Shown: piece after piece, positions 15,180 through 35,398 of the stretch
How positions within the stretch are numbered: position 1 is the first letter of the stretch
Layout of the letters: every line of letters begins with the position of its first letter
Virus record (IMG/VR): IMGVR_UViG_2541047928_000016
Direction: 5' to 3' (one strand)
Origin: a virus
Taxonomy: Duplodnaviria; Heunggongvirae; Uroviricota; Caudoviricetes
Length of the DNA stretch: 35,398 nucleotides
Notes under the pieces: generated by a model
Databases searched by the model: none
Told to the model about the DNA's origin: nothing
What the model saw: the letters and a program-made list of their open reading frames with translations, nothing else
Made by a program: the position numbers and the translations under genes

Positions 15180-15450
15180 GATGTTACCGTAGTATGTGAG
15201 TATCCATCGAATAGACACCAAGCAAAAAAGCTCCCGAAGGAGCCTTCATTTTCACTTTTTTAAATCCAACGACAGACGGCTGGCATTTAAGTATTGTGAA
15301 ATATTATCAAATGTAATCATCATTGATTTACAAAAGATACATTTTGCCCCGAAAGGATTCATGTCAGAAACATCAAAAGATGATGTTCTATACTGGGAAC
15401 CATGACAACACGGGCATCTAAAGTGAATATGGTTTGTAATATTGTCTACC

Positions 15451-15663
15451 TCAAAGCGCCACTACATGAACAGCGGCAGGACCTTTAGGTCCGTTCTCAA
15501 TACCAAATTCAACTTCCTGATTCTCAGTTAATGTTTTGAAATCGTTGCTCTGAATTGCTGAGAAATGGACAAACACATCTTTGCTGCCATCTTTCGGCGT
15601 GATGAAACCAAAACCTTTTTCAGGGTTAAACCATTTCACTAAACCAGTCATTTTGTTAGACAT
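15451..15663 (-). CDS. cspI: Cold shock protein, CspA family (70 aa), CspI-like
   Basis: [70 protein letters not shown]; RNP1 motif KGFGFI and RNP2 VFVHF. Confidence 0.9.
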
Positions 15664-16024
15664 AATTATTACCTTTTGAAGAAATTAGCCCTTGGGCAGA
15701 ATGGTCCGAAAAAAATATCAGAGAGAAAAACCAACAAGGAAATCTCAAGAGGTACAAATAATAAAATTATAACAATGACTGCTTCAGATAAATTTGTAAC
15801 AAACCAGAACACCATTAACGCATGATTAACCACCCATAGCAAGGATTACTTTTGTAAAGAAAAACACAGCAATGAAAGAATAGCTTTATTTATTAATAAA
15901 ACGTGTCATTCTGATTAAGACCTTTTATCTTACCCTTAAGATTTCAGGAATTTTGGCTCATGGAAGAGTCCTTTTTATTTAAATTTTACATTCCGCGATG
16001 TAAATGTTCCGATTTAATATTACC

Positions 16025-18056: not shown

Positions 18057-18333
18057 TTGTGGTGCTTTTTGTGGGAGTCATCCACTTACGCACTTTGTTT
18101 TGCCATGCCAGCAGTTAGCTTCTGCTGTAAAACTATTCATGCAGCAAACCTGCACTTCACCACAATGGTTAGCATACTTTTCCTGATTAAGATTTTGCCA
18201 AATATGCTAGCCATTGTTTCATGTATTGGACCTCCTTACTTTTTATTAAAGAGATCCAATATTCACTACTCTGTCCGTATCTCTACTCAGGCATCAGCCT
18301 TCTTCGTTATCGTATACAGACGAGCGATGAATT

Positions 18334-18549
18334 TTAATCAGTAATGATGACATTTGCTGCTGCAGGACCTTTAGCACCACTCTCTATAGAGAAGGTAACC
18401 TTTTGACCTTCAAATAAGGTTCGATAATTATCATTCTGAATCGCAGAAAAATGCACAAACACATCTTTACTACCATCAACAGGAGAAATAAAGCCGAAAC
18501 CTTTATCAGCGTTAAACCATTTTACTAAACCAGTCATTTTATTTGACAT
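18334..18549 (-). CDS. cspB: Cold shock protein, CspA family (71 aa), CspB-like
   Basis: [71 protein letters not shown]; long upstream untranslated region (18550-18700) typical of cold-shock mRNAs. Confidence 0.9.
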
Positions 18550-18849
18550 TCTACATTCCTTAACTTGAGCCTTTCGGCATAAATGGTTTGCATAACAGAA
18601 ACGACTTCGTACTTAATTGGAGAGACTCAAAGAAGGAATAAGTGAATAACACCTGAAATGAGAACTGCTTTAGTAAACTACTTCGTATATCGTCTGTTCT
18701 TCAAACCGACGCAATCATTAACGCATAGTTGAACATATGAAGCAATGTTTATTTTAGACATCCAGCCATCTTCAACCCCATCAAAAAACTATAGCTTTCT
18801 TCAGGAACGTGTGTATAGTGCGCCAAGTTATCAGTATTAAGGAATTTTT

Positions 18850-20249: not shown

Positions 20250-21299
20250 TTACGCCAGTACGCCAATTGCCAGCGCGCGATCGATAAAACGAAATATCAG
20301 CTCCAGTTGGGAGCCATACTTATCTTCAAATGCCACTGTATCCGTATGCAGCTCGTTGTGATGCTTTCTGCACAAAGGCAACACAAAGAGATCATGTGCT
20401 TTTGTTCCCATTCCGCCCTGCCCGTGACCAATCAGATGATGCGGATCGTCGGCTGGCATACCGCAGCAAGCACACGGCTGTGTCTTAACCCAACGTGTGT
20501 ATTTCTCCTTAACCCAGCGGCGACGTTTAGGCAGCTTCATGAAAGATTCCGGAGACTCTGGATCAACGGTGATGCTTACCACCGTCTTTTCCTGTGGTGA
20601 TTTTTGTTGCTGGTGGGCGTAAGGCAACGGTGCAAGATTTTTTGTGCGTTGTTTCAATATGCTGGTGGCGGTCTGCTCTCCCGGTACGATGTCGCTTTCG
20701 CGGTACACCGAGCAGATTTTTTCCGCTGGTAATCCCAGCGAACGACGCGATACAGCCTCAGGTAGTGCATCCACCACCTGATTGCAGACCGCCCACCAGG
20801 ATAATTCAGCCAAAGATAATTCCCGCTCCTGCGTACCGCTTATTGCGTGACGGATGACGTCAATCACCCATGCTGTCAGATTTTGTTGAGCAAGCAGCTC
20901 CAGTGATTCCGATGTCTGGTCACGCAGTTGGTTGTCGCAGTGCCAGCACAACACCATTGCGCCGGTACCATAACGGTGAATGACTGTTTCAGTGTGATGG
21001 TAATCGCCATTAGGCCACTGGCAGGATGTAACATGACGTAATAGCCAGTCGGACAATGCGCCAACGCCGCCAGCAGCACGAATCACCCGTTCGTTACTAA
21101 AAAACGGCAGCAATGTTTTGTCTTCCGCCAGCGGCTGGCGAACGGCAGGAACGACTCCGGATGGCAGATTACGCATGCTTTTTGGTTCCGGTTCCACCAG
21201 CACTCGAGGATTATGAAATATCTGTATGGATTCACGGCCCGGCTTAAGGACCACCAGCCCAAGCTCAGGCACCAGAACAGGTCTAAGTAATACCCGCAC
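20250..21299 (-). CDS. ydfU: YdfU-like protein (DUF968 family), about 349 aa if GTG start at 21297-21299; Cys/His-rich C-terminal region
   Basis: ORF-track frame of 362 aa (GTG at 21338); C-terminal CACCGMPADDPHHLIGHGQGGMGTKAHDLFVLPLCRKHHNELH suggests a metal-binding (HNH-like) motif; start choice uncertain. Confidence 0.7.
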   Translation of the reverse strand: MRVLLRPVLVPELGLVVLKPGRESIQIFHNPRVLVEPEPKSMRNLPSGVVPAVRQPLAEDKTLLPFFSNERVIRAAGGVGALSDWLLRHVTSCQWPNGDYHHTETVIHRYGTGAMVLCWHCDNQLRDQTSESLELLAQQNLTAWVIDVIRHAISGTQERELSLAELSWWAVCNQVVDALPEAVSRRSLGLPAEKICSVYRESDIVPGEQTATSILKQRTKNLAPLPYAHQQQKSPQEKTVVSITVDPESPESFMKLPKRRRWVKEKYTRWVKTQPCACCGMPADDPHHLIGHGQGGMGTKAHDLFVLPLCRKHHNELHTDTVAFEDKYGSQLELIFRFIDRALAIGVLA

Positions 21300-21300
21300 G

Positions 21301-21579
21301 TTACCTCCAGATCCGTTGCTGGAAAGTGCGGGACGCACGTGGTGGGCGTTCGGAATAAGGCAGCCTGACAGAGATTATCCAGTGCCGATAGTCGAGACTG
21401 AGAGCTTTCTTAACCTCGAACCCGCGCCTGCGGTAAGAATGAATCAGCCATTCGGCCTGTTCTGCAGTGCATGGAGGGTGCTGGAACCATTCAGACTTGA
21501 ATGCGTGAGAATACCGCCCGTGCGTGCAGGCAAGAACGGGCGAATTATCAGAATTGTAATATTTTGCGTTGCGTGCCAT
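21301..21579 (-). CDS. Hypothetical protein (92 aa), translationally coupled to ydfU
   Basis: ATG at 21577-21579 with GGAG 8 nt upstream; MARNAKYYNSDNSPVLACTHGRYSHAFKSEWFQHPPCTAEQAEWLIHSYRRRGFEVKKALSLDYRH...; no family recognised. Confidence 0.55.
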   Translation of the reverse strand: MARNAKYYNSDNSPVLACTHGRYSHAFKSEWFQHPPCTAEQAEWLIHSYRRRGFEVKKALSLDYRHWIISVRLPYSERPPRASRTFQQRIWR

Positions 21580-21645
21580 CGGTTTTCTCCGGTGGCACGG
21601 TGTTACTCAGCGGGAGTTCAGCCCCGCGCAAGATTGTAGATGAGT

Positions 21646-21897
21646 TTATTCTCCTGAAAAAGCAGAAAAGCCAGCTTTTATTCCGATCTCTTTCAATGCC
21701 TGTAATGAAGTGACAAACTCACCTTCGCGCAAGATAAATCCGTCCGTGACCCGAGCATCCACAAAATTAATTAACGCAGCCCCATTCTTTCGCAAACACA
21801 TAATGCGGTAATGACTAACAAGATTTCCATTTTCAACGCACACAGCATAGAGGCCATCTTCACAAAAAATTTTACGCAGTTCTTCGATGTTCATCAT
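21646..21897 (-). CDS. rem: Small hypothetical protein (83 aa), Rem-like by position and size
   Basis: MMNIEELRKIFCEDGLYAVCVENGNLVSHYRIMCLRKNGAALINFVDARVTDGFILREGEFVTSLQALKEIGIKAGFSAFSGE; assignment to rem is from memory of Qin gene order, not verified. Confidence 0.55.
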   Translation of the reverse strand: MMNIEELRKIFCEDGLYAVCVENGNLVSHYRIMCLRKNGAALINFVDARVTDGFILREGEFVTSLQALKEIGIKAGFSAFSGE

Positions 21898-22113
21898 CAG
21901 AATCCTTCCGGATAATTAGCTCTCCCCTTTAAGGGACCATCCCTCTTATCCCTGCGCGCTACTTAAGTATTTTTGATTCTATTCCGGCACCGTCCAGAAC
22001 TTCAAACGCGTTGAAAATAAAAACAAAAACCAGCCGAAGCGGGTTAAGTGCGGGTGCGTTGAGGATGCCTGCCACATCAGAGGTGGCGAGGGATTTCTCC
22101 CCCGCCGGGTCTC

Positions 22114-22269
22114 TTACTCCTCAGGTTCGTAAGCTGTGAAGACAGCGACCTCCGTCTGGCCGGTTCGGATTCGTACCTCGCAGAGGTCTTTCCTCGTTAC
22201 CAGTGCCGTCACTATGACGGTTAAACAGATGACGATCAGGGCGATTAACATCGCCTTTTGCTGCTTCAT
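22114..22269 (-). CDS. hokD: Hok-family type I toxin (51 aa), HokD/RelF-like; below ORF-track cutoff
   Basis: Manual translation MKQQKAMLIALIVICLTVIVTALVTRKDLCEVRIRTGQTEVAVFTAYEPEE; single TM helix then conserved Hok periplasmic tail; 71 nt downstream of relE. Confidence 0.85.
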   Translation of the reverse strand: MKQQKAMLIALIVICLTVIVTALVTRKDLCEVRIRTGQTEVAVFTAYEPEE

Positions 22270-22340
22270 AGCCTGCTTCTCCTGTCAACGCAAAGCAGAA
22301 GTGTCACCTTCGGTGCGAAACAGAGATGTCATGCTTTGGT

Positions 22341-22628
22341 TCAGAGAATGCGTTTGACCGCCTCGCTATATACTTCCGAGCGTTCTCTTTTCCCAACAGA
22401 AATCACGAAAACGACAACTTTCTCGTCTATAACCTGGTATACAAGGCGATAGCCTGAAGACCGGAGCTTAATCTTGTAACAATCAGGCATACCACGGAGC
22501 TTGTTTGCTTCAATCCGGGGTGACTCAAGTACTTCAACCAGCTTCTTTTTCAACTGTTCACGTACCGTCGAGCCCAGCTTTCGCCATTCCTTTAGTGCCC
22601 GCTCGTCAAAATCCAGAAAATACGCCAT
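22341..22628 (-). CDS. relE: RelE mRNA interferase toxin (95 aa)
   Basis: MAYFLDFDERALKEWRKLGSTVREQLKKKLVEVLESPRIEANKLRGMPDCYKIKLRSSGYRLVYQVIDEKVVVFVISVGKRERSEVYSEAVKRIL. Confidence 0.95.
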   Translation of the reverse strand: MAYFLDFDERALKEWRKLGSTVREQLKKKLVEVLESPRIEANKLRGMPDCYKIKLRSSGYRLVYQVIDEKVVVFVISVGKRERSEVYSEAVKRIL

Positions 22629-22867
22629 CAGAGTTCATCCAGCGTCACACGTACTGGCTTAGGATTACGAAGCCGTTCTTTCACTATCTCCACAAGTTCA
22701 GCATCTTCATCACTCAGGAGTGTCTGTTTGAACGGCAAGCGTTCATTGTCAGCGATATACTCGAGCATGAGACGAAGCGCTTCAGAAGGAGTTACACCCA
22801 TTTTTTCAAGCGCGGCGTAAGAACGCGCTTTAAGTTCATCGTCAATACGCAGGTTAATGCTACCCAT
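22628..22867 (-). CDS. relB: RelB antitoxin (79 aa), RHH DNA-binding
   Basis: MGSINLRIDDELKARSYAALEKMGVTPSEALRLMLEYIADNERLPFKQTLLSDEDAELVEIVKERLRNPKPVRVTLDEL; stop overlaps relE start. Confidence 0.95.
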   Translation of the reverse strand: MGSINLRIDDELKARSYAALEKMGVTPSEALRLMLEYIADNERLPFKQTLLSDEDAELVEIVKERLRNPKPVRVTLDEL

Positions 22868-22879
22868 GTCTTACACCTC

Positions 22880-22904
22880 TTGTAATTACAAATGTCATTA
22901 CAAG
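22880..22904 (-). promoter_or_regulatory. Candidate relO operator: palindromic hexad repeats TTGTAATTACAA and TGTCATTACAAG just upstream of relB
   Basis: Seen directly in sequence 13-37 nt upstream of the relB start codon. Confidence 0.45.
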
Positions 22905-23197
22905 TATCGCACTACAACATGCTTAGGGCAAGTCACGAAGGAAGTCAGAAAGTAGTCGTAAGAACGGTGATCACTGTCCGCTTTGTGCCAGGAGCAGCCA
23001 TTGCTAAGTCCATCCTGTATTGTGCAGGTCAGCTCGTTTTTAAAGAGTCCGGCCATCATCTTACTGGTACAGACACCATATACTTTGTGACGGTCAGGCT
23101 ACATATGCACAACTCAACTTATTCATCTATTTTTTGCTTTAGCATGTCAGTGTTGCTTTCTCGTCGGCGGGTGAGCGGTGACCTGACCTGTCGATAA
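22892..23197 (+). CDS. Hypothetical ORF (101 aa), YdfV-like by position; doubtful
   Basis: ATG-initiated ORF divergent from relB but its start lies inside the relO operator and the translation is low-complexity; retained only because an ORF of this size is annotated at this position in Qin as I recall. Confidence 0.3.
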   Translation: MSLQVSHYNMLRASHEGSQKVVVRTVITVRFVPGAAIAKSILYCAGQLVFKESGHHLTGTDTIYFVTVRLHMHNSTYSSIFCFSMSVLLSRRRVSGDLTCR

Positions 23198-23349
23198 AGG
23201 AACGTAGCACGTTTTATGCAACACCCGCATGCGGCAGAAAATTATTGCCGAACGTTTACCCCTGTCAACAAGCTTTACTTTCTGAGGCGCGCCAGCCCGC
23301 GAGGAAAACAATCTGAACATCAAACAATTAATGACACAAGAAATACGAT

Positions 23350-23376
23350 TAAAGATTTTTTTGTGCATGCCGATAG
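23350..23376 (+). promoter_or_regulatory. Sigma-28 (FliA) class 3 flagellar promoter: TAAAGATT, 11-nt spacer, GCCGATAG
   Basis: Plus strand taaagatttttttgtgcatgccgatag, 24 nt upstream of flxA ATG; matches consensus TAAAGTTT-N11-GCCGATAA at 13 of 16 positions. Confidence 0.55.
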
Positions 23377-23399
23377 TGCTTTTTTAAAAGGAGAAATCT

Positions 23400-23732
23400 A
23401 TGTCTGTCACAATTCAGGGAAATACCTCAACCGTTATTTCAAACAACTCCGCCCCGGAAGGAACATCAGAAATAGCCAAAATCACAAGACAAATTCAGGT
23501 GCTGACTGAAAAGCTTGGGAAAATCTCATCGGAAGAGGGGATGACGACACAGCAGAAAAAAGAAATGGCTGCATTGGTACAGAAGCAAATTGAAAGCCTC
23601 AGGGCTCAACTGGAGCAGTTGTTAAGGCAGCAGGCAGAGAAAAAGAATAAAGACGCGACAGTTCAGCCTGATAAAAAAGAAGAGAAAAAAGACGATACAA
23701 ATACCGCTGGCACCATTGATATTTACGTCTAA
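23400..23732 (+). CDS. flxA: FlxA (FliA-regulated protein), 110 aa
   Basis: MSVTIQGNTSTVISNNSAPEGTSEIAKITRQIQVLTEKLGKISSEEGMTTQQKKEMAALVQKQIESLRAQLEQLLRQQAEKKNKDATVQPDKKEEKKDDTNTAGTIDIYV; AAGGAG RBS. Confidence 0.85.
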   Translation: MSVTIQGNTSTVISNNSAPEGTSEIAKITRQIQVLTEKLGKISSEEGMTTQQKKEMAALVQKQIESLRAQLEQLLRQQAEKKNKDATVQPDKKEEKKDDTNTAGTIDIYV

Positions 23733-23746
23733 GTGACAGCCGTATT

Positions 23747-23769
23747 GTGGCCCTCATCGGGCCACTTTT
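23747..23769 (+). terminator. Intrinsic terminator after flxA (GTGGCCC-TCATC-GGGCCAC then TTTT)
   Basis: Perfect 7-bp stem seen 15 nt after the flxA stop. Confidence 0.55.
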
Positions 23770-24059
23770 CGCCATCAGCCTTTTCTTTAAAGACATATTA
23801 TCTTTGTATCATTTCTGATAGTTAACATTACAAGATATAAGTAATGGACGCACTCCCAATTAGTCTATTTAAATCGCCACGAGTTTAACTGACAACCCAT
23901 GATCAATTATGAATTGCAACTATTTCTGTAGTCACTTTTGTGGGGACAGTCCACAAAACTGCCAACTTCCGCTTCTTGCTCTTAGCGGACATTAGCATAG
24001 GCTATTTACCATAACGCCTCATTACGCGCACCGCCCAGACTGACTCAGCGCGTTTCTGG

Positions 24060-25570
24060 CATATCCCCGGTAAAACAAGTAACAAACCACCCGAAAATGA
24101 ACACCAGAAACGCGACTTAAGAATCTACCCTATGAATGGATATGCACTCAACCGAATCGATCTTGGTTTCAATCTATTTTATCGGGATCAGGCTTCTTTT
24201 TAGGTAACTTCGGGGGCTTAACTTGCTGATGACTTTGCGTTCGGCGCGTAAGCCAGGGATGGTCAGCTTTAGATTTAACATAGTATTTTGAGCGTAAATC
24301 AATACGGGCATTATCCACTCGTTCATGGACACTCTTTTCATCATCCAGTGGTATAGGCTCCGGGCCATCAACATACTTTTCCCAGCCCAGCGCTTTCCCG
24401 TCATACAGAACGTTAATTTCACCGTCAAAGTTCTCACATACAGTAACAACTGAATGCCTAAGTCGATATCCCCGGCCCTCACTGCGTACCTGAAACGCAC
24501 TGCTTTTGTACTGGAAAGTGAGATTTTTAGACAGAACGCGCTTCGCCTGTAGGCTGAAGATATAACCCAGTTCCTCTTCAGAATGGTGCACATCAAGATG
24601 AGCATTATCAGTAGTACGAGGCGACGTAGCGAACCGGTTGTTATAGGCTTCAATAAAGGTCGGCAACCATGCATTTGCTGTTTCAATATCACTGATATTC
24701 TGAAGCCGCATTTCTTTGACCAGCCTGTCCTGTAGTGTCTGATTGGCGCGCTCTACCCGCCCTTTTGCCTGCGGGCTGTTGGCATGGATTGGCTCGATGC
24801 CCAGTGTCTTTATCGCACGAGTGAACTGGGTCAGCTCACCTTCCCGCTCTGGGTTATTTACCCTGAATATACTGTGTCTATCAGAGTAGAGAGCGAGCGG
24901 TACGCCATGATCATTAAGGTAACCCCGGAGGGTTTCCATGTAAGCCCGGGTTGTTTCAGCAGGCACAAAACGCAACGCCATCAACGCACTGGTGGCATCA
25001 TCAATGAAAACGATCAGTGTACATCTGGGGCCTCGATTTTCAAACCAGTCATGAGGTGAGCCATCAATCTGGATCAGTTCACCGTAAGATGGTCGTCGCA
25101 TGCGGCGTTGATATATACGGGCAATTTTACGACGGCGTTCACGCCATAACCCCTCTTCTATCATCCACTTTCTGAGAGTTTCAACGGATAAAGATAAACC
25201 GTGTATCTCGCGCAATTTTTCGCACGCAAACGTAGGTCCAAAATCAGCGTAACGGCCTTTGAGGAGTGAAATTACTGTTGCTCTGAATTCAGTAGAAAAG
25301 GAATTATTAGGACGCTTTCCACGTCGGTGGGAAACCAGACCAGAAGGCCCTTCATTTCTATACCGTTGCACCAGACGTTTAACCTGCCGAATAGAAATGC
25401 CAATGCGTGCCGCAGCTTGTTCCTGAGTAATATGTCGATTAATTGACTCCTGAATAATCTGAAGTCGGTGGAGTTCCTTATGACTCATCGTAACAGTCTC
25501 TTTGATCATGAAAAATCCCCCAGAGAATTGTCTGGGGACATTTTAGAATGGTTCAAAGGGGACATTACAG
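24060..25570 (-). mobile_element. Probable insertion sequence carrying a single DDE transposase; ends not resolved (no clean terminal inverted repeats or target-site duplication found)
   Basis: Single transposase gene interrupting the phage early region between flxA and the replication genes; candidate right end TGTAATGTCCCC at 25558-25569; boundaries approximate. Confidence 0.3.
24169..25509 (-). CDS. DDE-type transposase with N-terminal HTH and integrase-core (rve) domain, 446 aa; IS481/ISNCY-like
   Basis: MIKETVTMSHKELHRLQIIQESINRHITQEQAAARIGISIRQVKRLVQRYR... then LIQIDGSPHDW ... YSDRHSIF ... conserved acidic residues and Lys/Pro-rich C-tail; family-level call is from memory. Confidence 0.8.
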   Translation of the reverse strand: MIKETVTMSHKELHRLQIIQESINRHITQEQAAARIGISIRQVKRLVQRYRNEGPSGLVSHRRGKRPNNSFSTEFRATVISLLKGRYADFGPTFACEKLREIHGLSLSVETLRKWMIEEGLWRERRRKIARIYQRRMRRPSYGELIQIDGSPHDWFENRGPRCTLIVFIDDATSALMALRFVPAETTRAYMETLRGYLNDHGVPLALYSDRHSIFRVNNPEREGELTQFTRAIKTLGIEPIHANSPQAKGRVERANQTLQDRLVKEMRLQNISDIETANAWLPTFIEAYNNRFATSPRTTDNAHLDVHHSEEELGYIFSLQAKRVLSKNLTFQYKSSAFQVRSEGRGYRLRHSVVTVCENFDGEINVLYDGKALGWEKYVDGPEPIPLDDEKSVHERVDNARIDLRSKYYVKSKADHPWLTRRTQSHQQVKPPKLPKKKPDPDKID

Positions 25571-25962
25571 CTTGGTGTTAACAATAGCCTGCTTCTCCTT
25601 GCCTTCCGGCACTCGCGACAGATTATGTTTAGACGACTGTCGTAGCGACGTATTTCTCCGTCAGGTAATGACCAGATAAGGTCCGGATCAACCACAGCAG
25701 GTTTCTTCACCTTTGCCCTCGAGAGTTTTTTGCGGGCGTTTTGCCAGTCCTTACGCGCCTGTTCAGACGGGAATAACCCGTAACCAGAGCTGTATACATC
25801 GCCACTGGCAACCAGCTCTCTGGCCAGAACGCTCATCAGATATCTTGTTGCCCCAGTTTTAGCTTCCAGTTGTCGTAACGTCTCGCGCCCACTCTGGCGT
25901 ACGAGTTCCACCACCTGCCCTTTAATTTTTTCCCGCTCTTCTTGTGTAAAAACTTTTGCCAC
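25543..25962 (-). CDS. Hypothetical protein (139 aa) downstream of the replication initiator, in the position of a helicase loader; C-terminus may be altered by the adjacent IS
   Basis: GTG start with strong AGGAGG 5 nt upstream; basic Arg/Lys-rich C-terminal half; last codons fall within the candidate IS end. Confidence 0.55.
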   Translation of the reverse strand: MAKVFTQEEREKIKGQVVELVRQSGRETLRQLEAKTGATRYLMSVLARELVASGDVYSSGYGLFPSEQARKDWQNARKKLSRAKVKKPAVVDPDLIWSLPDGEIRRYDSRLNIICRECRKARRSRLLLTPSCNVPFEPF

Positions 25963-26002
25963 AAGTCCTCCTGAACATTACTTTATACCCTAAAATCAAC
26001 AC

Positions 26003-26968
26003 TTATCCCCTGAAACCAGGCGGAATTTCTGTATCCGGTTCAGAAATATGATTCACACAACGCTGTACAGGTGAACGTCCCAGGCGGATGACCAGTTCGT
26101 CCCATTTTTCGCGGAGTTTTGACGGGCTCATGATGTTTTTTACCCAGAATTGATCTCGCTGTACCCGACCAAACATTTCGCAAATTTGTCTGTGGCTTCT
26201 GCCATCCAGCATCCGCATTGTGCGCACGTCATTGGCCCAGGCTGTCCAGTTAGGCTCTTTTGGTCGCATGATCTCTCCATCGTCGCTGGCAGCCTGTTCG
26301 TAAAGGTTCACGATCCGCCCCCAAATCCACTGCGCACACGCCAAATCCTCCCTGCTACCCCACTGGCGTTTTTTCGCACTAAACACAACCGCGTCGGGGT
26401 TCCGGGTTAAAAAATCCTGTTCAGCGGTCTGCGGGTCCGGTTGCGAAGCTTCCGGACGAAAAGTGTTTTTATTCTCTGTAGTAATCTCTGTTGTATTCTC
26501 TGTAAGATCATCAGGCCATTTTGACCCGATGACATTGGGTCGTTTTGAACCAATGGAGCGTTTCATTTTGACCTCTTCCATCGTGTCATTTTGACCTGAT
26601 GGAGCGGCGCATTTTAAACCGATGGATTCGCTCAATTTGCCACCATCTAAAAGCTCGCTCCCGTAGTTGATCGTGTAGAAATTGGTCATATCGCGCTTTG
26701 ATTTATTGAGCTTTTCACAACGCAAAAGCCCCAGCGTTTTCAGACTTGCAAACGCGCGCTTTAACGTTGACTCTGACCAGAATGGGAACTGTTCCAGCCA
26801 TTGTTCCGTTGTGTTGTAAATCCAGCGAACACCATCACATTCCATGCCGGAATTGGTATCTCTCAACCAGTAATGCAACTGCTGCAACACAATGGCTTCA
26901 TTTAAGCCAATCTTCATCGCAAGCTGTGTGTTTATAACCAGTGGGCGTTCAGCAAAAAGAAGGCTCAT
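26003..26968 (-). CDS. Phage replication initiator (O-like replisome organiser), 321 aa from ATG 26968 (track TTG start at 27022)
   Basis: N-terminal HTH-like region MSLLFAERPLVINTQLAMKIGLNEAIVLQQLHYWL...; iteron array embedded mid-gene as in lambda O; position after the Cro/CII-slot genes. Confidence 0.75.
   Translation of the reverse strand: MSLLFAERPLVINTQLAMKIGLNEAIVLQQLHYWLRDTNSGMECDGVRWIYNTTEQWLEQFPFWSESTLKRAFASLKTLGLLRCEKLNKSKRDMTNFYTINYGSELLDGGKLSESIGLKCAAPSGQNDTMEEVKMKRSIGSKRPNVIGSKWPDDLTENTTEITTENKNTFRPEASQPDPQTAEQDFLTRNPDAVVFSAKKRQWGSREDLACAQWIWGRIVNLYEQAASDDGEIMRPKEPNWTAWANDVRTMRMLDGRSHRQICEMFGRVQRDQFWVKNIMSPSKLREKWDELVIRLGRSPVQRCVNHISEPDTEIPPGFRG
26461..26650. repeat. Candidate origin of replication: about 6 degenerate direct repeats (iterons) of period about 22-23 bp (ATTTTGACC..GATGGAGCG) plus 3 copies of TCTCTGT, inside the O-like gene
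   Basis: Seen directly: cattttgacccgatgacattgggtcg / ttttgaaccaatggagcg / tttcattttgacctcttccatcg / tgtcattttgacctgatggagcg / gcgcattttaaaccgatggattcg. Confidence 0.6.
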
Positions 26969-27470
26969 AATTCCATCCAGCTTTTTGTTGGTATTGCTGT
27001 CGATACGCAAGTTTGAAAGCAATTGCTTTTTCTATAAGTTCGTCAGTTTCACGATCCACTACGGCAGGATCAGCAAAAAGCAGTCCGGACTCCACCACAT
27101 CGCCATATTCTTTGTTTAACCCGGCGATCATGTACGTGATGCTTTTTCCGTCATTAATTTCACGATACAACCTGAAATCATTAATCCGAATAGCCTCCAT
27201 AATTGCAGGCACTAGCGCCGTGAACTTTTCACGCTTATCCCTGGTGTCGATAGCCTTCCAGCGTTCGAATATCTTCACTCGATTAACGCCAAGTGCTCGC
27301 TGATCAACCGCGCCACCTTCATCTGTGACACGCTGAACATCGATGTTCGGGCGCTCTTTCAAAGCCCAGAATGCTTCAGTGATTAATATCGTCGCCTGCT
27401 CCTGTGTCATTCCTGGTCGACATATCCAGGCATCCAGAGCCTCACGAGCCTGTTCAGGAGTGATTTTCAT
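26949..27470 (-). CDS. Hypothetical protein (173 aa) in the cII position between the cro-like gene and the replication initiator
   Basis: ATG at 27468-27470; MKITPEQAREALDAWICRPGMTQEQATILITEAFWALKERPNIDVQRVTDEGGAVDQRALGVNRVKIFERWKAIDTRDKREKF...; no family recognised. Confidence 0.6.
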   Translation of the reverse strand: MKITPEQAREALDAWICRPGMTQEQATILITEAFWALKERPNIDVQRVTDEGGAVDQRALGVNRVKIFERWKAIDTRDKREKFTALVPAIMEAIRINDFRLYREINDGKSITYMIAGLNKEYGDVVESGLLFADPAVVDRETDELIEKAIAFKLAYRQQYQQKAGWNYEPSFC

Positions 27471-29350: not shown

Positions 29351-29408
29351 TTTCTGGTGACGTTTGGCGGTATCAGTTTTACTCCGTGACTGCTCTGCCG
29401 CCCTTTTT
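29351..29408 (+). ncRNA. dicF: DicF small RNA (ftsZ/manX-targeting antisense sRNA) with terminator hairpin and U-tract
   Basis: tttctggtgacgtttggcggtatcagttttactccgtgactgctctgccgcccttttt matches my recall of K-12 DicF; 170 nt upstream of dicB. Confidence 0.8.
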
Positions 29409-32862: not shown

Positions 32863-34158
32863 ATGAGAGAAGTTGAAATGAAATATCCGACAGGCGTGGA
32901 AAACCATGGAGGGAAATTACGTATCTGGTTTGTTTATAAAGGCGTAAGAGTCAGGGAAAATCTGGGGGTTCCTGACACAGCAAAAAACAGGCGCGTTGCA
33001 GGTGAACTACGCTCCTCTGTTTGTTACGCAATAAAAACTGGTGTTTTCGACTATGCAAAACAGTTTCCCTCCTCACGCAATCTGGAAAAATTTGGTGAGG
33101 CCCGACAAGATTTAACCATAAAAGAACTGGCTGAAAAATTTCTGGCACTGAAAGAAACTGAAGTCGCCAAAACATCACTCAACACATACCGTGCCGTCAT
33201 CAAAAATATCCTGAGCATAATCGGTGAAAAAAATCTTGCCTCATCGATTAATAAAGAAAAATTACTGGAGGTTCGTAAAGAGCTACTGACTGGATACCAG
33301 ATCCCCAAAAGTAACTATATTGTTACACAACCAGGGAGATCGGCTGTAACTGTAAATAATTACATGACAAATCTTAACGCCGTGTTCCAGTTTGGTGTTG
33401 ATAACGGTTACCTGGCAGATAATCCGTTTAAGGGGATCTCGCCATTAAAGGAATCAAGAACCATTCCGGATCCTCTTGCGCGGGAGGAATTTATCCGTCT
33501 TATCGATGCATGCAGAAATCAGCAAGCAAAAAATTTATGGTGTGTTTCTGTTTATACTGGCGTTCGCCCTGGTGAGCTGTGTGCACTTGGATGGGAGGAC
33601 ATAGATCTGAAAAATGGAACAATGATGATCAGGAGAAATTTAGCAAAAGACCGTTTCACGGTACCAAAAACACAGGCGGGAACCAATCGGGTCATTCATC
33701 TTATTAAGCCAGCAATCGACGCTCTCCGGAGTCAGATGACATTAACGAGACTGAGCAAAGAGCATATCATTGATGTTCACCTCAGAGAGTATGGCAGAAC
33801 AGAAAAACAAAAATGCACCTTTGTTTTTCAACCTGAAGTGTCAGCGAGAGTAAAAAATTATGGTGACCATTTTACCGTTGACTCAATAAGGCAGATGTGG
33901 GACGCAGCGATAAAACGTGCCGGACTCCGCCATCGAAAATCATATCAGTCGAGACATACTTATGCCTGCTGGTCGCTGACAGCTGGTGCTAACCCGGCAT
34001 TTATAGCAAACCAGATGGGCCATGCAGATGCGCAAATGGTATTTCAGGTATACGGAAAATGGATGTCTGAAAACAATAATGCACAGGTAGCTTTGTTAAA
34101 TACACAGTTAAGCGAGTTTGCCCCAACCATGCCCCATAACGAAGCAATGAAAAATTAA
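32863..34158 (+). CDS. Tyrosine site-specific integrase (lambda Int family), about 426-431 aa
   Basis: C-terminal catalytic region with conserved R (VYTGVRPGE), H-x-x-R (HRKSYQSRHTYA) and GH...VYGKW tyrosine; alternative ATG at 32878. Confidence 0.9.
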   Translation: MREVEMKYPTGVENHGGKLRIWFVYKGVRVRENLGVPDTAKNRRVAGELRSSVCYAIKTGVFDYAKQFPSSRNLEKFGEARQDLTIKELAEKFLALKETEVAKTSLNTYRAVIKNILSIIGEKNLASSINKEKLLEVRKELLTGYQIPKSNYIVTQPGRSAVTVNNYMTNLNAVFQFGVDNGYLADNPFKGISPLKESRTIPDPLAREEFIRLIDACRNQQAKNLWCVSVYTGVRPGELCALGWEDIDLKNGTMMIRRNLAKDRFTVPKTQAGTNRVIHLIKPAIDALRSQMTLTRLSKEHIIDVHLREYGRTEKQKCTFVFQPEVSARVKNYGDHFTVDSIRQMWDAAIKRAGLRHRKSYQSRHTYACWSLTAGANPAFIANQMGHADAQMVFQVYGKWMSENNNAQVALLNTQLSEFAPTMPHNEAMKN

Positions 34159-34186: not shown

Positions 34187-35398
34187 ATGACTCTTGAAAT
34201 CCATAACATCCAGAGCATTCTTGGGATCCAGTCGATCGACACCGGGATCCTCGGTGCGGTGATCGCCGGTATTATCGTCTGGATGCTGCATGAGCGATTC
34301 CATAATATCCGCCTGCCGGATGCGCTGGCATTCTTCGGCGGTACGCGCTTCGTACCAATCATCTCCTCGCTAGTGATGGGTCTTGTCGGCCTGGTGATTC
34401 CATTAGTCTGGCCGATTTTCGCCATGGGTATTAGCGGCTTAGGCCATATGATCAACAGCGCGGGAGATTTCGGACCGATGCTGTTTGGTACCGGTGAACG
34501 TCTGCTGTTGCCGTTTGGTCTGCATCACATTCTGGTGGCATTAATTCGCTTTACCGACGCAGGCGGCACGCAGGAAGTCTGCGGTCAAACCGTCAGCGGT
34601 GCACTGACCATCTTCCAGGCGCAATTGAGTTGCCCAACCACTCACGGTTTTTCTGAAAGCGCCACGCGTTTCCTTTCGCAAGGTAAAATGCCTGCGTTTC
34701 TCGGCGGTCTGCCAGGTGCAGCGTTAGCTATGTATCACTGTGCGCGCCCGGAAAATCGCCATAAAATTAAAGGTCTGCTGATTTCTGGCCTGATCGCCTG
34801 TGTCGTTGGCGGCACGACCGAACCGCTGGAATTCCTGTTCCTGTTCGTAGCGCCAGTTCTGTATGTCATCCACGCGCTGTTAACCGGCCTCGGCTTCACT
34901 GTCATGTCTGTGCTCGGCGTCACCATCGGTAATACCGACGGCAATATCATCGACTTTGTGGTGTTCGGTATTTTGCATGGTCTGTCAACCAAGTGGTACA
35001 TGGTGCCAGTAGTGGCGGCAATCTGGTTTGTCGTTTACTACATCATCTTCCGTTTCGCTATCACCCGCTTCAATCTCAAAACCCCGGGGCGCGATAGTGA
35101 AGTTGCCAGTTCAATCGAAAAAGCCGTTGCCGGTGCGCCGGGTAAATCAGGTTACAACGTTCCGGCAATCCTCGAAGCCTTAGGCGGTGCCGACAATATT
35201 GTCAGCCTCGATAACTGCATTACGCGTCTGCGTTTGTCTGTAAAAGATATGTCGCTTGTTAATGTGCAGGCACTGAAGGACAATCGGGCAATTGGCGTAG
35301 TACAACTTAATCAACATAACCTGCAGGTTGTTATCGGGCCACAAGTTCAGTCAGTAAAAGATGAAATGGCCGGTCTGATGCATACTGTCCAGGCATAA
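34187..35398 (+). CDS. PTS glucose-family EIICB component, 3' portion (403 aa); appears 5'-truncated at the prophage junction (possibly MalX/PtsG-like)
   Basis: Multiple TM helices then C-terminal EIIB domain with phosphorylation-site motif NCITRLRLSV; shorter than typical EIICB by roughly 70-120 N-terminal residues; integrase gene lies 29 nt upstream. Confidence 0.75.
   Translation: MTLEIHNIQSILGIQSIDTGILGAVIAGIIVWMLHERFHNIRLPDALAFFGGTRFVPIISSLVMGLVGLVIPLVWPIFAMGISGLGHMINSAGDFGPMLFGTGERLLLPFGLHHILVALIRFTDAGGTQEVCGQTVSGALTIFQAQLSCPTTHGFSESATRFLSQGKMPAFLGGLPGAALAMYHCARPENRHKIKGLLISGLIACVVGGTTEPLEFLFLFVAPVLYVIHALLTGLGFTVMSVLGVTIGNTDGNIIDFVVFGILHGLSTKWYMVPVVAAIWFVVYYIIFRFAITRFNLKTPGRDSEVASSIEKAVAGAPGKSGYNVPAILEALGGADNIVSLDNCITRLRLSVKDMSLVNVQALKDNRAIGVVQLNQHNLQVVIGPQVQSVKDEMAGLMHTVQA

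Follow-up and report, generated by a model that had tools for sequence, protein, structure and literature searches.

The relB-relE-hokD toxin module considered here lies in a 35,398-nt stretch of Caudoviricetes DNA (IMG/VR virus record IMGVR_UViG_2541047928_000016; hereafter the window), and its closest described counterpart is the relBEF operon of the cryptic prophage Qin in Escherichia coli K-12. RelB represses its own promoter at the operator relO with RelE as co-repressor, and excess RelE or Lon-driven loss of RelB lifts this repression; RelE itself cleaves mRNA on the ribosome (PMC2812701, PMC3507626). Northern probes for relB, relE and relF (hokD) all reveal a single full-length transcript that disappears upon deletion of the relBEF promoter, and the RNA of hokD, the third cistron, builds up as a stable 3' fragment after induction of mRNA interferases (PMC3598666). 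Pedersen and Gerdes (1999), as cited in PMC7232551 and PMC5630033, counted hokD among the inactive hok loci of K-12; in the passages that cite this work, the two papers attribute "genetic rearrangement" to the inactive hok set as a whole.

The insertion sequences (ISs) of the IS1202 family have imperfect inverted repeats of 24-26 bp with TGT/ACA ends and a transposase of 394-507 amino acids (aa), and one subgroup generates long target duplications (PMC10132070). For ISEsa1, which is 1,609 bp long, no target duplication was detected (PMC10132070).

We consider it very likely that the window holds a K-12-type relBEF operon within a Qin-like prophage and that hokD was severed from type I control by a relBE-carrying ISEsa1-like transposon. 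What appears to be new, as judged from sequence comparison, is relBE as the cargo of such a transposon, landed on hokD and on other hok starts. Our literature search, which left out most subscription papers, turned up no account of an ISEsa1-like transposon that carries relBE, nor of hok serving as its target, and an earlier description is conceivable.

A putative relBE transposon at the start of hokD

The module itself is already known. An ungapped comparison of K-12 MG1655 with the window gives zero mismatches across 22033-23206, and the whole span singled out in the preliminary description, which had proposed this alignment, is 100% identical to K-12. This makes it the relBEF operon known from the cryptic prophage Qin of E. 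coli K-12. A 1.1-kb query around it finds complete E. coli genomes at 99.9% identity, in which relB, relE, hokD and ydfV are annotated.

The window retains DNA that K-12 has lost. The K-12 deletion corresponds to window positions 24354-27190 and leaves ydfW as a C-terminal transposase remnant. The origin of the element is hidden in K-12 because this deletion took both the left repeat and the left duplication.

relBE sits inside a unit with the anatomy of a transposon (Table 1), and the relE-hokD junction would be one of its ends, a point that the preliminary description missed. The 26-mer of the left inverted repeat (IRL) recurs unchanged in three further loci (L089-L091; L numbers denote the loci compared with the window) and in 60 viral contigs. 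The reverse complement of the right inverted repeat (IRR) agrees with IRL at 19 of 26 positions and has the same TGT/ACA tips; only 1 of 500 shuffles attains the alignment score. An ungapped inverted-repeat finder misses these terminal repeats, which contain small gaps, and the comparison was therefore made by gapped local alignment with shuffles. The intact transposase scores 465 bits against NCBIfam NF033594 (ISNCY_2; cut-off 250) and has Pfam helix-turn-helix domains and rve_3. The RefSeq name of its homologue is "IS1202-like element ISEsa1 family transposase".

The unit is flanked by a duplication of hokD sequence. The perfect 15-bp repeat GGAGAAGCAGGCTAT sits exactly outside both IRL and IRR. 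When the window is compared with prophages that carry an intact hokD, a second hok match of 29 nt appears at 25612-25584, consisting of the end of the leader plus GGAGAAGCAGGCTAT. The uninterrupted loci L087 and L088 show the empty site, with a single copy of the 15-mer.

At the left junction, the last 14 nt of the leader are fused to a 3'-truncated DUF977 gene, and the rest of the leader, including sok, is deleted. Other prophages retain the full leader beside IRL (L094, L112, L128 and L147). The DUF977-family open reading frame (ORF; 25543-25962, minus strand), which is 3'-truncated relative to its homologue in L088, reads across the leader stub and the duplication into IRL. A deletion of about 1.6 kb at this junction took out sok and most of the leader.

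Table 1. Features of the relBEF locus and the surrounding element; positions are those of the window.
Feature	Position	Strand	Details
Intrinsic terminator	22012-22045	minus	Hairpin 22045-22028, then U-run
Orphan fbi-like 3' element	22052-22064	minus	CCTCAACGCACCC; in intact loci complementary to the hok mRNA 5' end GGGTGCTTGAGG
hokD (relF)	22114-22269	minus	ORF for a 51-aa Hok/Gef-family membrane toxin; K-12 WP_000813254.1
Right target duplication copy	22268-22282	minus	GGAGAAGCAGGCTAT; hokD Shine-Dalgarno through "AT" of the start codon
relE-hokD spacer	22270-22340	minus	71 nt
IRR	22283-22308	minus	...GGTGACACTTCTGCTTTGCGTTGACA, within the relE-hokD spacer
relE	22341-22628	minus	95-aa ribosome-dependent mRNA endonuclease toxin; Pfam ParE_toxin 2.2e-13
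relB	22628-22867	minus	79-aa ribbon-helix-helix antitoxin and autorepressor; Pfam RelB 1e-32; K-12 annotation WP_000534858.1
relO operator	22880-22903	minus	24 contiguous bp, TTGTAATTACAAATGTCATTACAA; four hexads [A/T]TGT[A/C]A, two per strand
relB promoter (read from sequence)	22903-22931	minus	-35 TTGCCC (22931-22926), 17-nt spacer, -10 GATACT (22908-22903)
Conserved relBE arm	22283-22995	minus	Promoter, relO, relB, relE, IRR
Variable passenger segment	22996-23973		flxA (23400-23732, plus) and annotated ydfV (22892-23197, plus); other copies hold other genes
Transposase	24169-25509	minus	Intact, 446 aa, ISNCY/IS1202 family (ISEsa1-like), DDE; start about 75 nt inside IRL
IRL	25558-25583	minus	TGTTAACACCAAGCTGTAATGTCCCC; directly past the 29-nt hok-leader match
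Left target duplication copy	25598-25584	minus	GGAGAAGCAGGCTAT; the 14 nt before it (to 25612) are the end of the hok leader
Putative whole transposon	25583-22283	minus	3,301 bp; IRL, transposase, passenger, relBE, IRR

Together, these features suggest a sequence of events. An ISEsa1-like (IS1202/ISNCY) transposon with relBE beside IRR would have inserted immediately 5' of the hokD Shine-Dalgarno sequence, duplicating 15 bp and separating hokD from its promoter, 5' leader, mok start, Sok target and sok gene. hokD would then have come to be transcribed as a third cistron from the relB promoter. A later deletion would have removed most of the displaced leader in the window, and a separate, larger deletion the left half of the transposon in K-12. 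A transposon origin of the relE-hokD junction, including the junctions at other hok starts, is well supported by these comparisons; from them we also infer movement of the element by transposition and a preference for hok start regions.

Recurrence at other hok loci and elsewhere

The relBE arm is widespread in Enterobacterales. RelE occurs at 100% amino acid identity in many genera of the order. Copies of the arm (22995-22283) in Klebsiella, Enterobacter, Citrobacter, Kluyvera and other genera show about 99% nucleotide identity. The arm is present in about 670 plasmids of the collection and in roughly 1,150 of 5,426 complete E. coli genomes. In loci with close relatives, the relBE block ends at GTTGACA (in a few, slightly earlier) and the following sequence differs, giving more than 20 contexts. 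Hok-family genes make up part of these right flanks: at least eight different ones occur, with 28-70% identity to HokD, and those tested all pass HOK_GEF. One further flank is an inverted hok leader, and about a dozen are unrelated sequences.

Three plasmid loci carry the element in full beside a hok gene. Each has the left repeat, a 446-aa transposase, passengers, relBE and the right repeat; each has a perfect 15-bp direct repeat outside the element ends that matches the local hok sequence, and in each a HOK_GEF ORF abuts IRR. The copy in Klebsiella pneumoniae p44-1 (L089) is 4,661 bp long, with the repeat GGAGAAAAAGGCTAT, an ISEc52 insertion as passenger and a transposase 94% identical to that of the window (one copy compared). 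A Cronobacter IncHI2 plasmid (L090) holds a 6,093-bp element with the repeat GGAGAAGAAGGCCAT and genes for cytochrome b and a cation transporter; a Citrobacter freundii IncFII plasmid (L091) holds one of 5,706 bp just after psiB-psiA, again with GGAGAAGAAGGCCAT, carrying two hypothetical genes and one for a DJ-1/PfpI protein. In L090 and L091, the left end directly adjoins a full sok/hok leader; in L089, the leader is found further left, with an IS481-like insertion between it and IRL.

The element also occurs away from hok. A viral contig (L122) has the 3,301-bp unit, 99.8% identical, at an unrelated site with a 6-bp flanking repeat. An 853-bp derivative in Pantoea eucrina (L025, 1494-2346; also L028) consists of IRL, a transposase-start stub, relBE and IRR, and lies at a non-hok site within a 12-13-bp direct repeat. 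This comparative evidence suggests that the relBE element is mobile as a unit, with a long but unfixed flanking repeat. Among these contexts, hok start regions are strongly over-represented as targets, though other sites are used as well.

A second IS lineage is found at hok Shine-Dalgarno sequences. IS481-family elements lie at the same AGGAG in hokD of E. coli E2348/69 (L002, 1413-2500) and in the Klebsiella plasmid hok (L089, 3947-5036), and the two copies are 75% identical. The coincidence of IS481-like and relBE elements may reflect either a target preference common to these related transposases or selection for uncoupling hok from its leader. In K. pneumoniae pC706_1 (L086), a hok without relBE retains ~65 nt from the end of the relE-hokD spacer, with IRR among them (678-745), and adjoins a GNAT/DUF1778 toxin-antitoxin pair; this locus probably arose by deletion from a relBE-hok fusion.

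In the abstract of their 1999 study, Pedersen and Gerdes reportedly put the hokD case down to a major genetic rearrangement. We regard as probable, with less assurance than for the window itself, a broader reading in which K-12 relBE is the standing cargo of an ISEsa1-like transposon whose right end lies beside relE. Such a transposon would insert preferentially, and with single-nucleotide precision, just 5' of hok Shine-Dalgarno sequences on prophages and plasmids with a 15-bp duplication, swapping hok/sok for its own type II module and leaving hok as a promoter-less third cistron, and its insertion would lie behind the rearrangement reported in 1999. If relBE is standing cargo, a true right end next to relE would explain the lack of a detected duplication for ISEsa1; in the window, the duplication shows up only with the right end placed at the relE-side repeat.

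Several observations weigh against the transposon reading and its extension. The flanking repeat varies in length, from 15 bp at four hok sites to 12-13 bp in L025 and 6 bp in L122, and ISEsa1 is without a reported duplication (PMC10132070). The IS arm shared with other copies stops at 23974, 1,610 bp from IRL; set against the 1,609 bp of ISEsa1, this end means that IS and relBE cassette could be a composite and not one unit. Of the distinct contexts to the right of the relBE arm, about half do not involve hok, so that any target preference is not absolute, and selection for harmless insertions could contribute to the hok pattern. As for sequestration of the hokD start, RNA folds gave context-dependent, disagreeing answers.

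Other boundaries for the mobile unit were considered and set aside. A dif/cer-type, XerC/XerD-like sequence, GGTGCGCGTAA-TGAGGCG-TTATGGTAAAT, lies at 24004-24032 (minus strand), about 30 nt inside the conserved end of the IS arm. It was dropped as a module boundary: its exact pattern occurs only in the E. coli version of the element (including L122) and not in L089-L091. A self-contained 0.72-kb relBE cassette would need an inner left repeat near 22995, but this repeat is weaker (2 of 1,000 shuffles in L007) and no duplication lies beside it; the data are better explained by the outer IRL at 25583. Integron attC-type ends (GTTRRRY) fit neither GTTGACA nor the left end.

hokD without its type I regulation

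hokD is no longer a type I toxin-antitoxin system. The preliminary description credited the module with a toxin of type II and another of type I; HokD does belong to a type I toxin family, but the locus has no Sok, mok start or leader. The Rfam model for the Sok/hok-leader RNA (RF01794), which spans the hok leader as far as the ATG, has no match at E<=1 in 21000-24000 and none at gathering score across the window. Directly upstream of hok in seven control loci, it scores 80-118 bits (L003, L004, L087, L088, L089, L090 and L091; one O157 prophage, two E. coli prophages encoding an identical HokD and four plasmid loci).

The break with hok/sok is sharp. BLAST comparisons with genomes, phages and plasmids show that similarity to hokD/hokW-type loci without relBE always begins at window position 22283, 14 nt before the ATG. 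From there upward, relBE DNA replaces the leader; the mok start is absent, and the overlapping mok frame survives only as a start-less remnant (ORF 22121-22288). Because only the Shine-Dalgarno sequence, ORF, 3' untranslated region (UTR) and terminator of the hok locus are retained, hokD would be the third cistron of the relB promoter. A consensus promoter scan finds no promoter-like site in the relE-hokD interval on either strand.

The 3' UTR keeps half of a pairing predicted for an intact locus. In L003, the 5' GGGTGCTTGAGG and 3' CCTCAACGCACCC ends of the hok RNA pair in the predicted fold. Here the 5' partner GGGTGCTTGAGG is absent, and the fbi-like box stands without a tac/ucb counterpart.

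The relBE promoter, operator and products

The operator upstream of relB has the architecture of relO. Its four hexads, two per strand, bear out the earlier suggestion that palindromic hexads upstream of relB fit relO. They form one perfect and one pseudo-palindromic 12-bp half-site, abutting each other and overlapping the -10 box, and a search for the degenerate 24-mer gives a single match in the window and none in 100 shuffles. This is the layout defined experimentally for relO, perfect and pseudo-palindromic 12-bp half-sites at zero spacing (PMC2812701). GATACT is taken as the -10 box because relO is placed at -10 to +17, with "TA" and "CT" of the -10 box at -10 to -7 (PMC2812701); fitting the sequence to this description puts the likely transcription start near 22896. 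The consensus promoter scan did not report the relB promoter because only 8 of 12 positions match, and is uninformative here.

Lon-labile RelB, conditional cooperativity and A-site mRNA cleavage are assumed for this locus from the 100% identity to the K-12 proteins. By this analogy, RelB would neutralise RelE, be degraded by Lon and repress at relO, and RelE would act as co-repressor or de-repressor according to the RelB:RelE ratio.

The three genes are intact, and the preliminary description identified them correctly as RelB, RelE and a Hok-family toxin. relB and relE overlap by one base, as TGATG at 22626-22630, in the antitoxin-first bicistronic order, in agreement with the preliminary description. 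RelE matches the RelE chains of PDB entries 4v7k, 4fxe and 2kc8 over its full length. The pair thus shows the features of the RelBE class: a RelE/ParE-superfamily toxin, a RelB-family antitoxin, overlapping antitoxin-first ORFs and relO. The 51-aa Hok-family ORF had been placed 71 nt past relE by manual translation, and it is indeed there; its absence from the ORF track reflects a length cut-off only. Its product, MKQQKAMLIALIVICLTVIVTALVTRKDLCEVRIRTGQTEVAVFTAYEPEE, matches HOK_GEF over profile positions 1-42 of 42 (Pfam; 1.2e-23, 82.9 bits against a cut-off of 22) and PHROG 251, "MokW-like host killing", at 2.8e-33. A frameshift or stop in this frame, or a lack of any match to Hok profiles, had been named as possible grounds for doubt; the window sequence has neither frameshift nor stop, and the profile match is full-length.

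Published work already speaks to the toxicity of the 51-aa ORF, for which an assay had been proposed. Hok-like toxicity of relF is on record (Gerdes 1986, as cited in PMC3598666), and relF toxicity also serves as a control in a preprint (10.1101/2025.08.07.668861). According to the literature, hokD RNA is A-to-I edited at a Tyr codon, recoding it to Cys. Codon 47 of hokD is Tyr TAC followed by G, which gives the TACG context at 22128-22131.

The annotated ORF ydfV overlaps, on the opposite strand, the relB promoter, relO and the left boundary of the relBE arm. It has no match in Pfam, NCBIfam or PHROG and may not be a genuine gene.

Alternative readings of the locus

hokD could be a functional third effector. 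De-repression of relBEF by stress or by another mRNA interferase, and cleavage of its transcript, would then yield the stable hokD 3' fragment for translation, and RelBE would gate a membrane toxin. HokD proteins are identical in loci with and without relBE, as this scenario would allow. We nevertheless think it unlikely: canonical hok translation needs coupling to mok (10.1101/2025.08.07.668861), the start of which is absent from this locus, hokD and other chromosomal hok loci have been reported inactive (Pedersen and Gerdes 1999, as cited in PMC7232551 and PMC5630033), and we found no protein-level evidence of HokD. HokD is probably poorly translated without mok coupling, and the operon would be tolerated for this reason.

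The junction could also have arisen without transposition, through illegitimate or homologous recombination between hok loci or an integrase-type event with a 15-bp core, the likeness of the inverted repeats being incidental. The unequal flanking repeats (15, 12-13 and 6 bp) and the report of ISEsa1 without a duplication (PMC10132070) would be at home here; the Shine-Dalgarno-to-ATG stretch, conserved among hok genes, is a possible short crossover site, and a shared 15-bp core is typical of attL/attR pairs. Yet the duplications lie exactly outside the TGT...ACA repeats, and the element that these repeats bound has a gene for a full-length DDE transposase but none for an integrase. The sequence of the duplications varies with the local hok allele, that of the element ends does not, the breakpoint falls at the same base though the following hok sequence differs (L015, L019, L030 and L034), and the whole unit is also present at non-hok sites. 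Homologous recombination in the Shine-Dalgarno-to-ATG stretch was rejected in particular, as it cannot explain junctions with hok types that differ right after GTTGACA. Taken together, this makes an origin without transposition improbable.

A working type I system beside the type II one, with a separate hokD transcript and a Sok-like antisense RNA, is largely refuted and has hardly any probability left: hokD is an intact, high-scoring Hok-family ORF that keeps its Shine-Dalgarno sequence, 3' UTR and terminator, and Sok RNAs are encoded at other hok loci of an E. coli genome, but the sok/hok leader goes undetected in the window at permissive thresholds, against 80-118 bits in the controls, the Sok target belongs to that leader and thus lies outside any transcript reaching hokD, neither strand offers a promoter-like site between relE and hokD, and the published northern blots, the very approach proposed for finding a separate hok transcript or antisense RNA, show a single relB-promoter-dependent relBEF transcript (PMC3598666).

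Prophage setting and neighbouring genes

The window is a Qin-like lambdoid prophage. It has structural genes, a lysis cassette, cold-shock genes, a Q-like antiterminator, dicB, DicF, an exonuclease, an excisionase and an integrase, and the deposited phage genome PhiR42_1 (from ECOR13) has the same arrangement. At the Rfam gathering score, two cspA-type thermoregulator leaders of the prophage cold-shock genes (15424-15808 and 18318-18710) and the DicF antisense RNA (29352-29403) are detected. Similarity to the best-matching genomes stops just past the integrase (32863-34158), and a different ORF of at least 403 aa follows within 34216-35398. On this evidence, the prophage appears to occupy a chromosomal site unlike that in the best-matching genomes.

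The sole difference from K-12 near the module affects the terminator after hokD. Position 22032 is A in the window and C in K-12, which gives a mismatch in the stem of the terminator hairpin; the predicted stability is -5.6 kcal/mol here and -11.8 for the K-12 allele. The 22032 allele has an exact match in 5 genomes among the matches listed, of 3,440 with any match. A consensus terminator scan finds nothing at the hokD terminator, weakened as it is in the window's allele, and is uninformative on this point. Read-through from the relB promoter could in principle reach rem, the next gene after hokD, which encodes a DicA antirepressor (PMC10448788). Between the hokD terminator and rem lies the sole promoter-like consensus match of the region, TTGAAG-18-TAGAAT at 21976-22005 (minus strand), a possible candidate for the rem promoter. 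PHROGs assigns Rem no function. One phage record labels Rem as the HokD antitoxin; this was ruled out, as Rem is the DicA antirepressor (PMC10448788).

Comparison with known systems

The module as first flagged is the textbook relBEF locus, and the checks proposed for it had already been published. Its transposon context gives a concrete, testable origin for the 25-year-old observation that hokD lacks any hok/sok regulation, and suggests that a much-studied type II toxin-antitoxin system travels as transposon cargo across Enterobacterales. If true, a mobile element that targets the start site of another addiction module would represent competition between selfish modules, and would possibly add a new target specificity to the IS1202 family.

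The locus shares with K-12 relBEF the promoter, relO, the three ORFs, the spacer and the neighbours (rem, ydfU and ydfT on one side; ydfV and flxA on the other). Unlike K-12, the window still has the transposase in intact form, together with the left inverted repeat, the left copy of the target duplication and the hok-leader stub; its prophage includes structural genes and an integrase and is more complete.

With hok/sok systems (parB of R1, hokW/sokW of the Stx2 prophage Sp5 and prophage hokD with an intact leader), it has the toxin family in common. Starting at -14, identity to prophage hokD/hokW loci is 93-99% through the Shine-Dalgarno sequence, the ORF, the 3' UTR including its fbi-like box, and the terminator. 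In contrast to hok/sok loci, hokD here has no 5' leader (tac/ucb), mok start, Sok target or sok gene and promoter, and uses the promoter of a type II system.

The element resembles ISEsa1 and the IS1202 family in its ~440-aa transposase with helix-turn-helix and DDE (rve) domains and in its imperfect repeats of ~26 bp with TGT...ACA tips, and one IS1202 subgroup in its unusually long target duplication. It differs from ISEsa1 in extending past the 1.6-kb IS to a repeat beside relBE, with relBE and variable passengers in units of 3.3-6.1 kb, and in its 15-bp duplication where none is reported. Other IS1202-family members are site-specific for dif-like sites (PMC10132070), whereas the recurrent target here is the hok translation-initiation region and not a Xer site.

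Cargo of this kind has a parallel in another transposon family. Tn3-family transposons carry toxin-antitoxin genes, with the type II pair near one end, where they plausibly stabilise the element or its carrier replicon. The relBE element differs from them in transposase family and mechanism, and it also disrupts a resident addiction module as it brings in its own.

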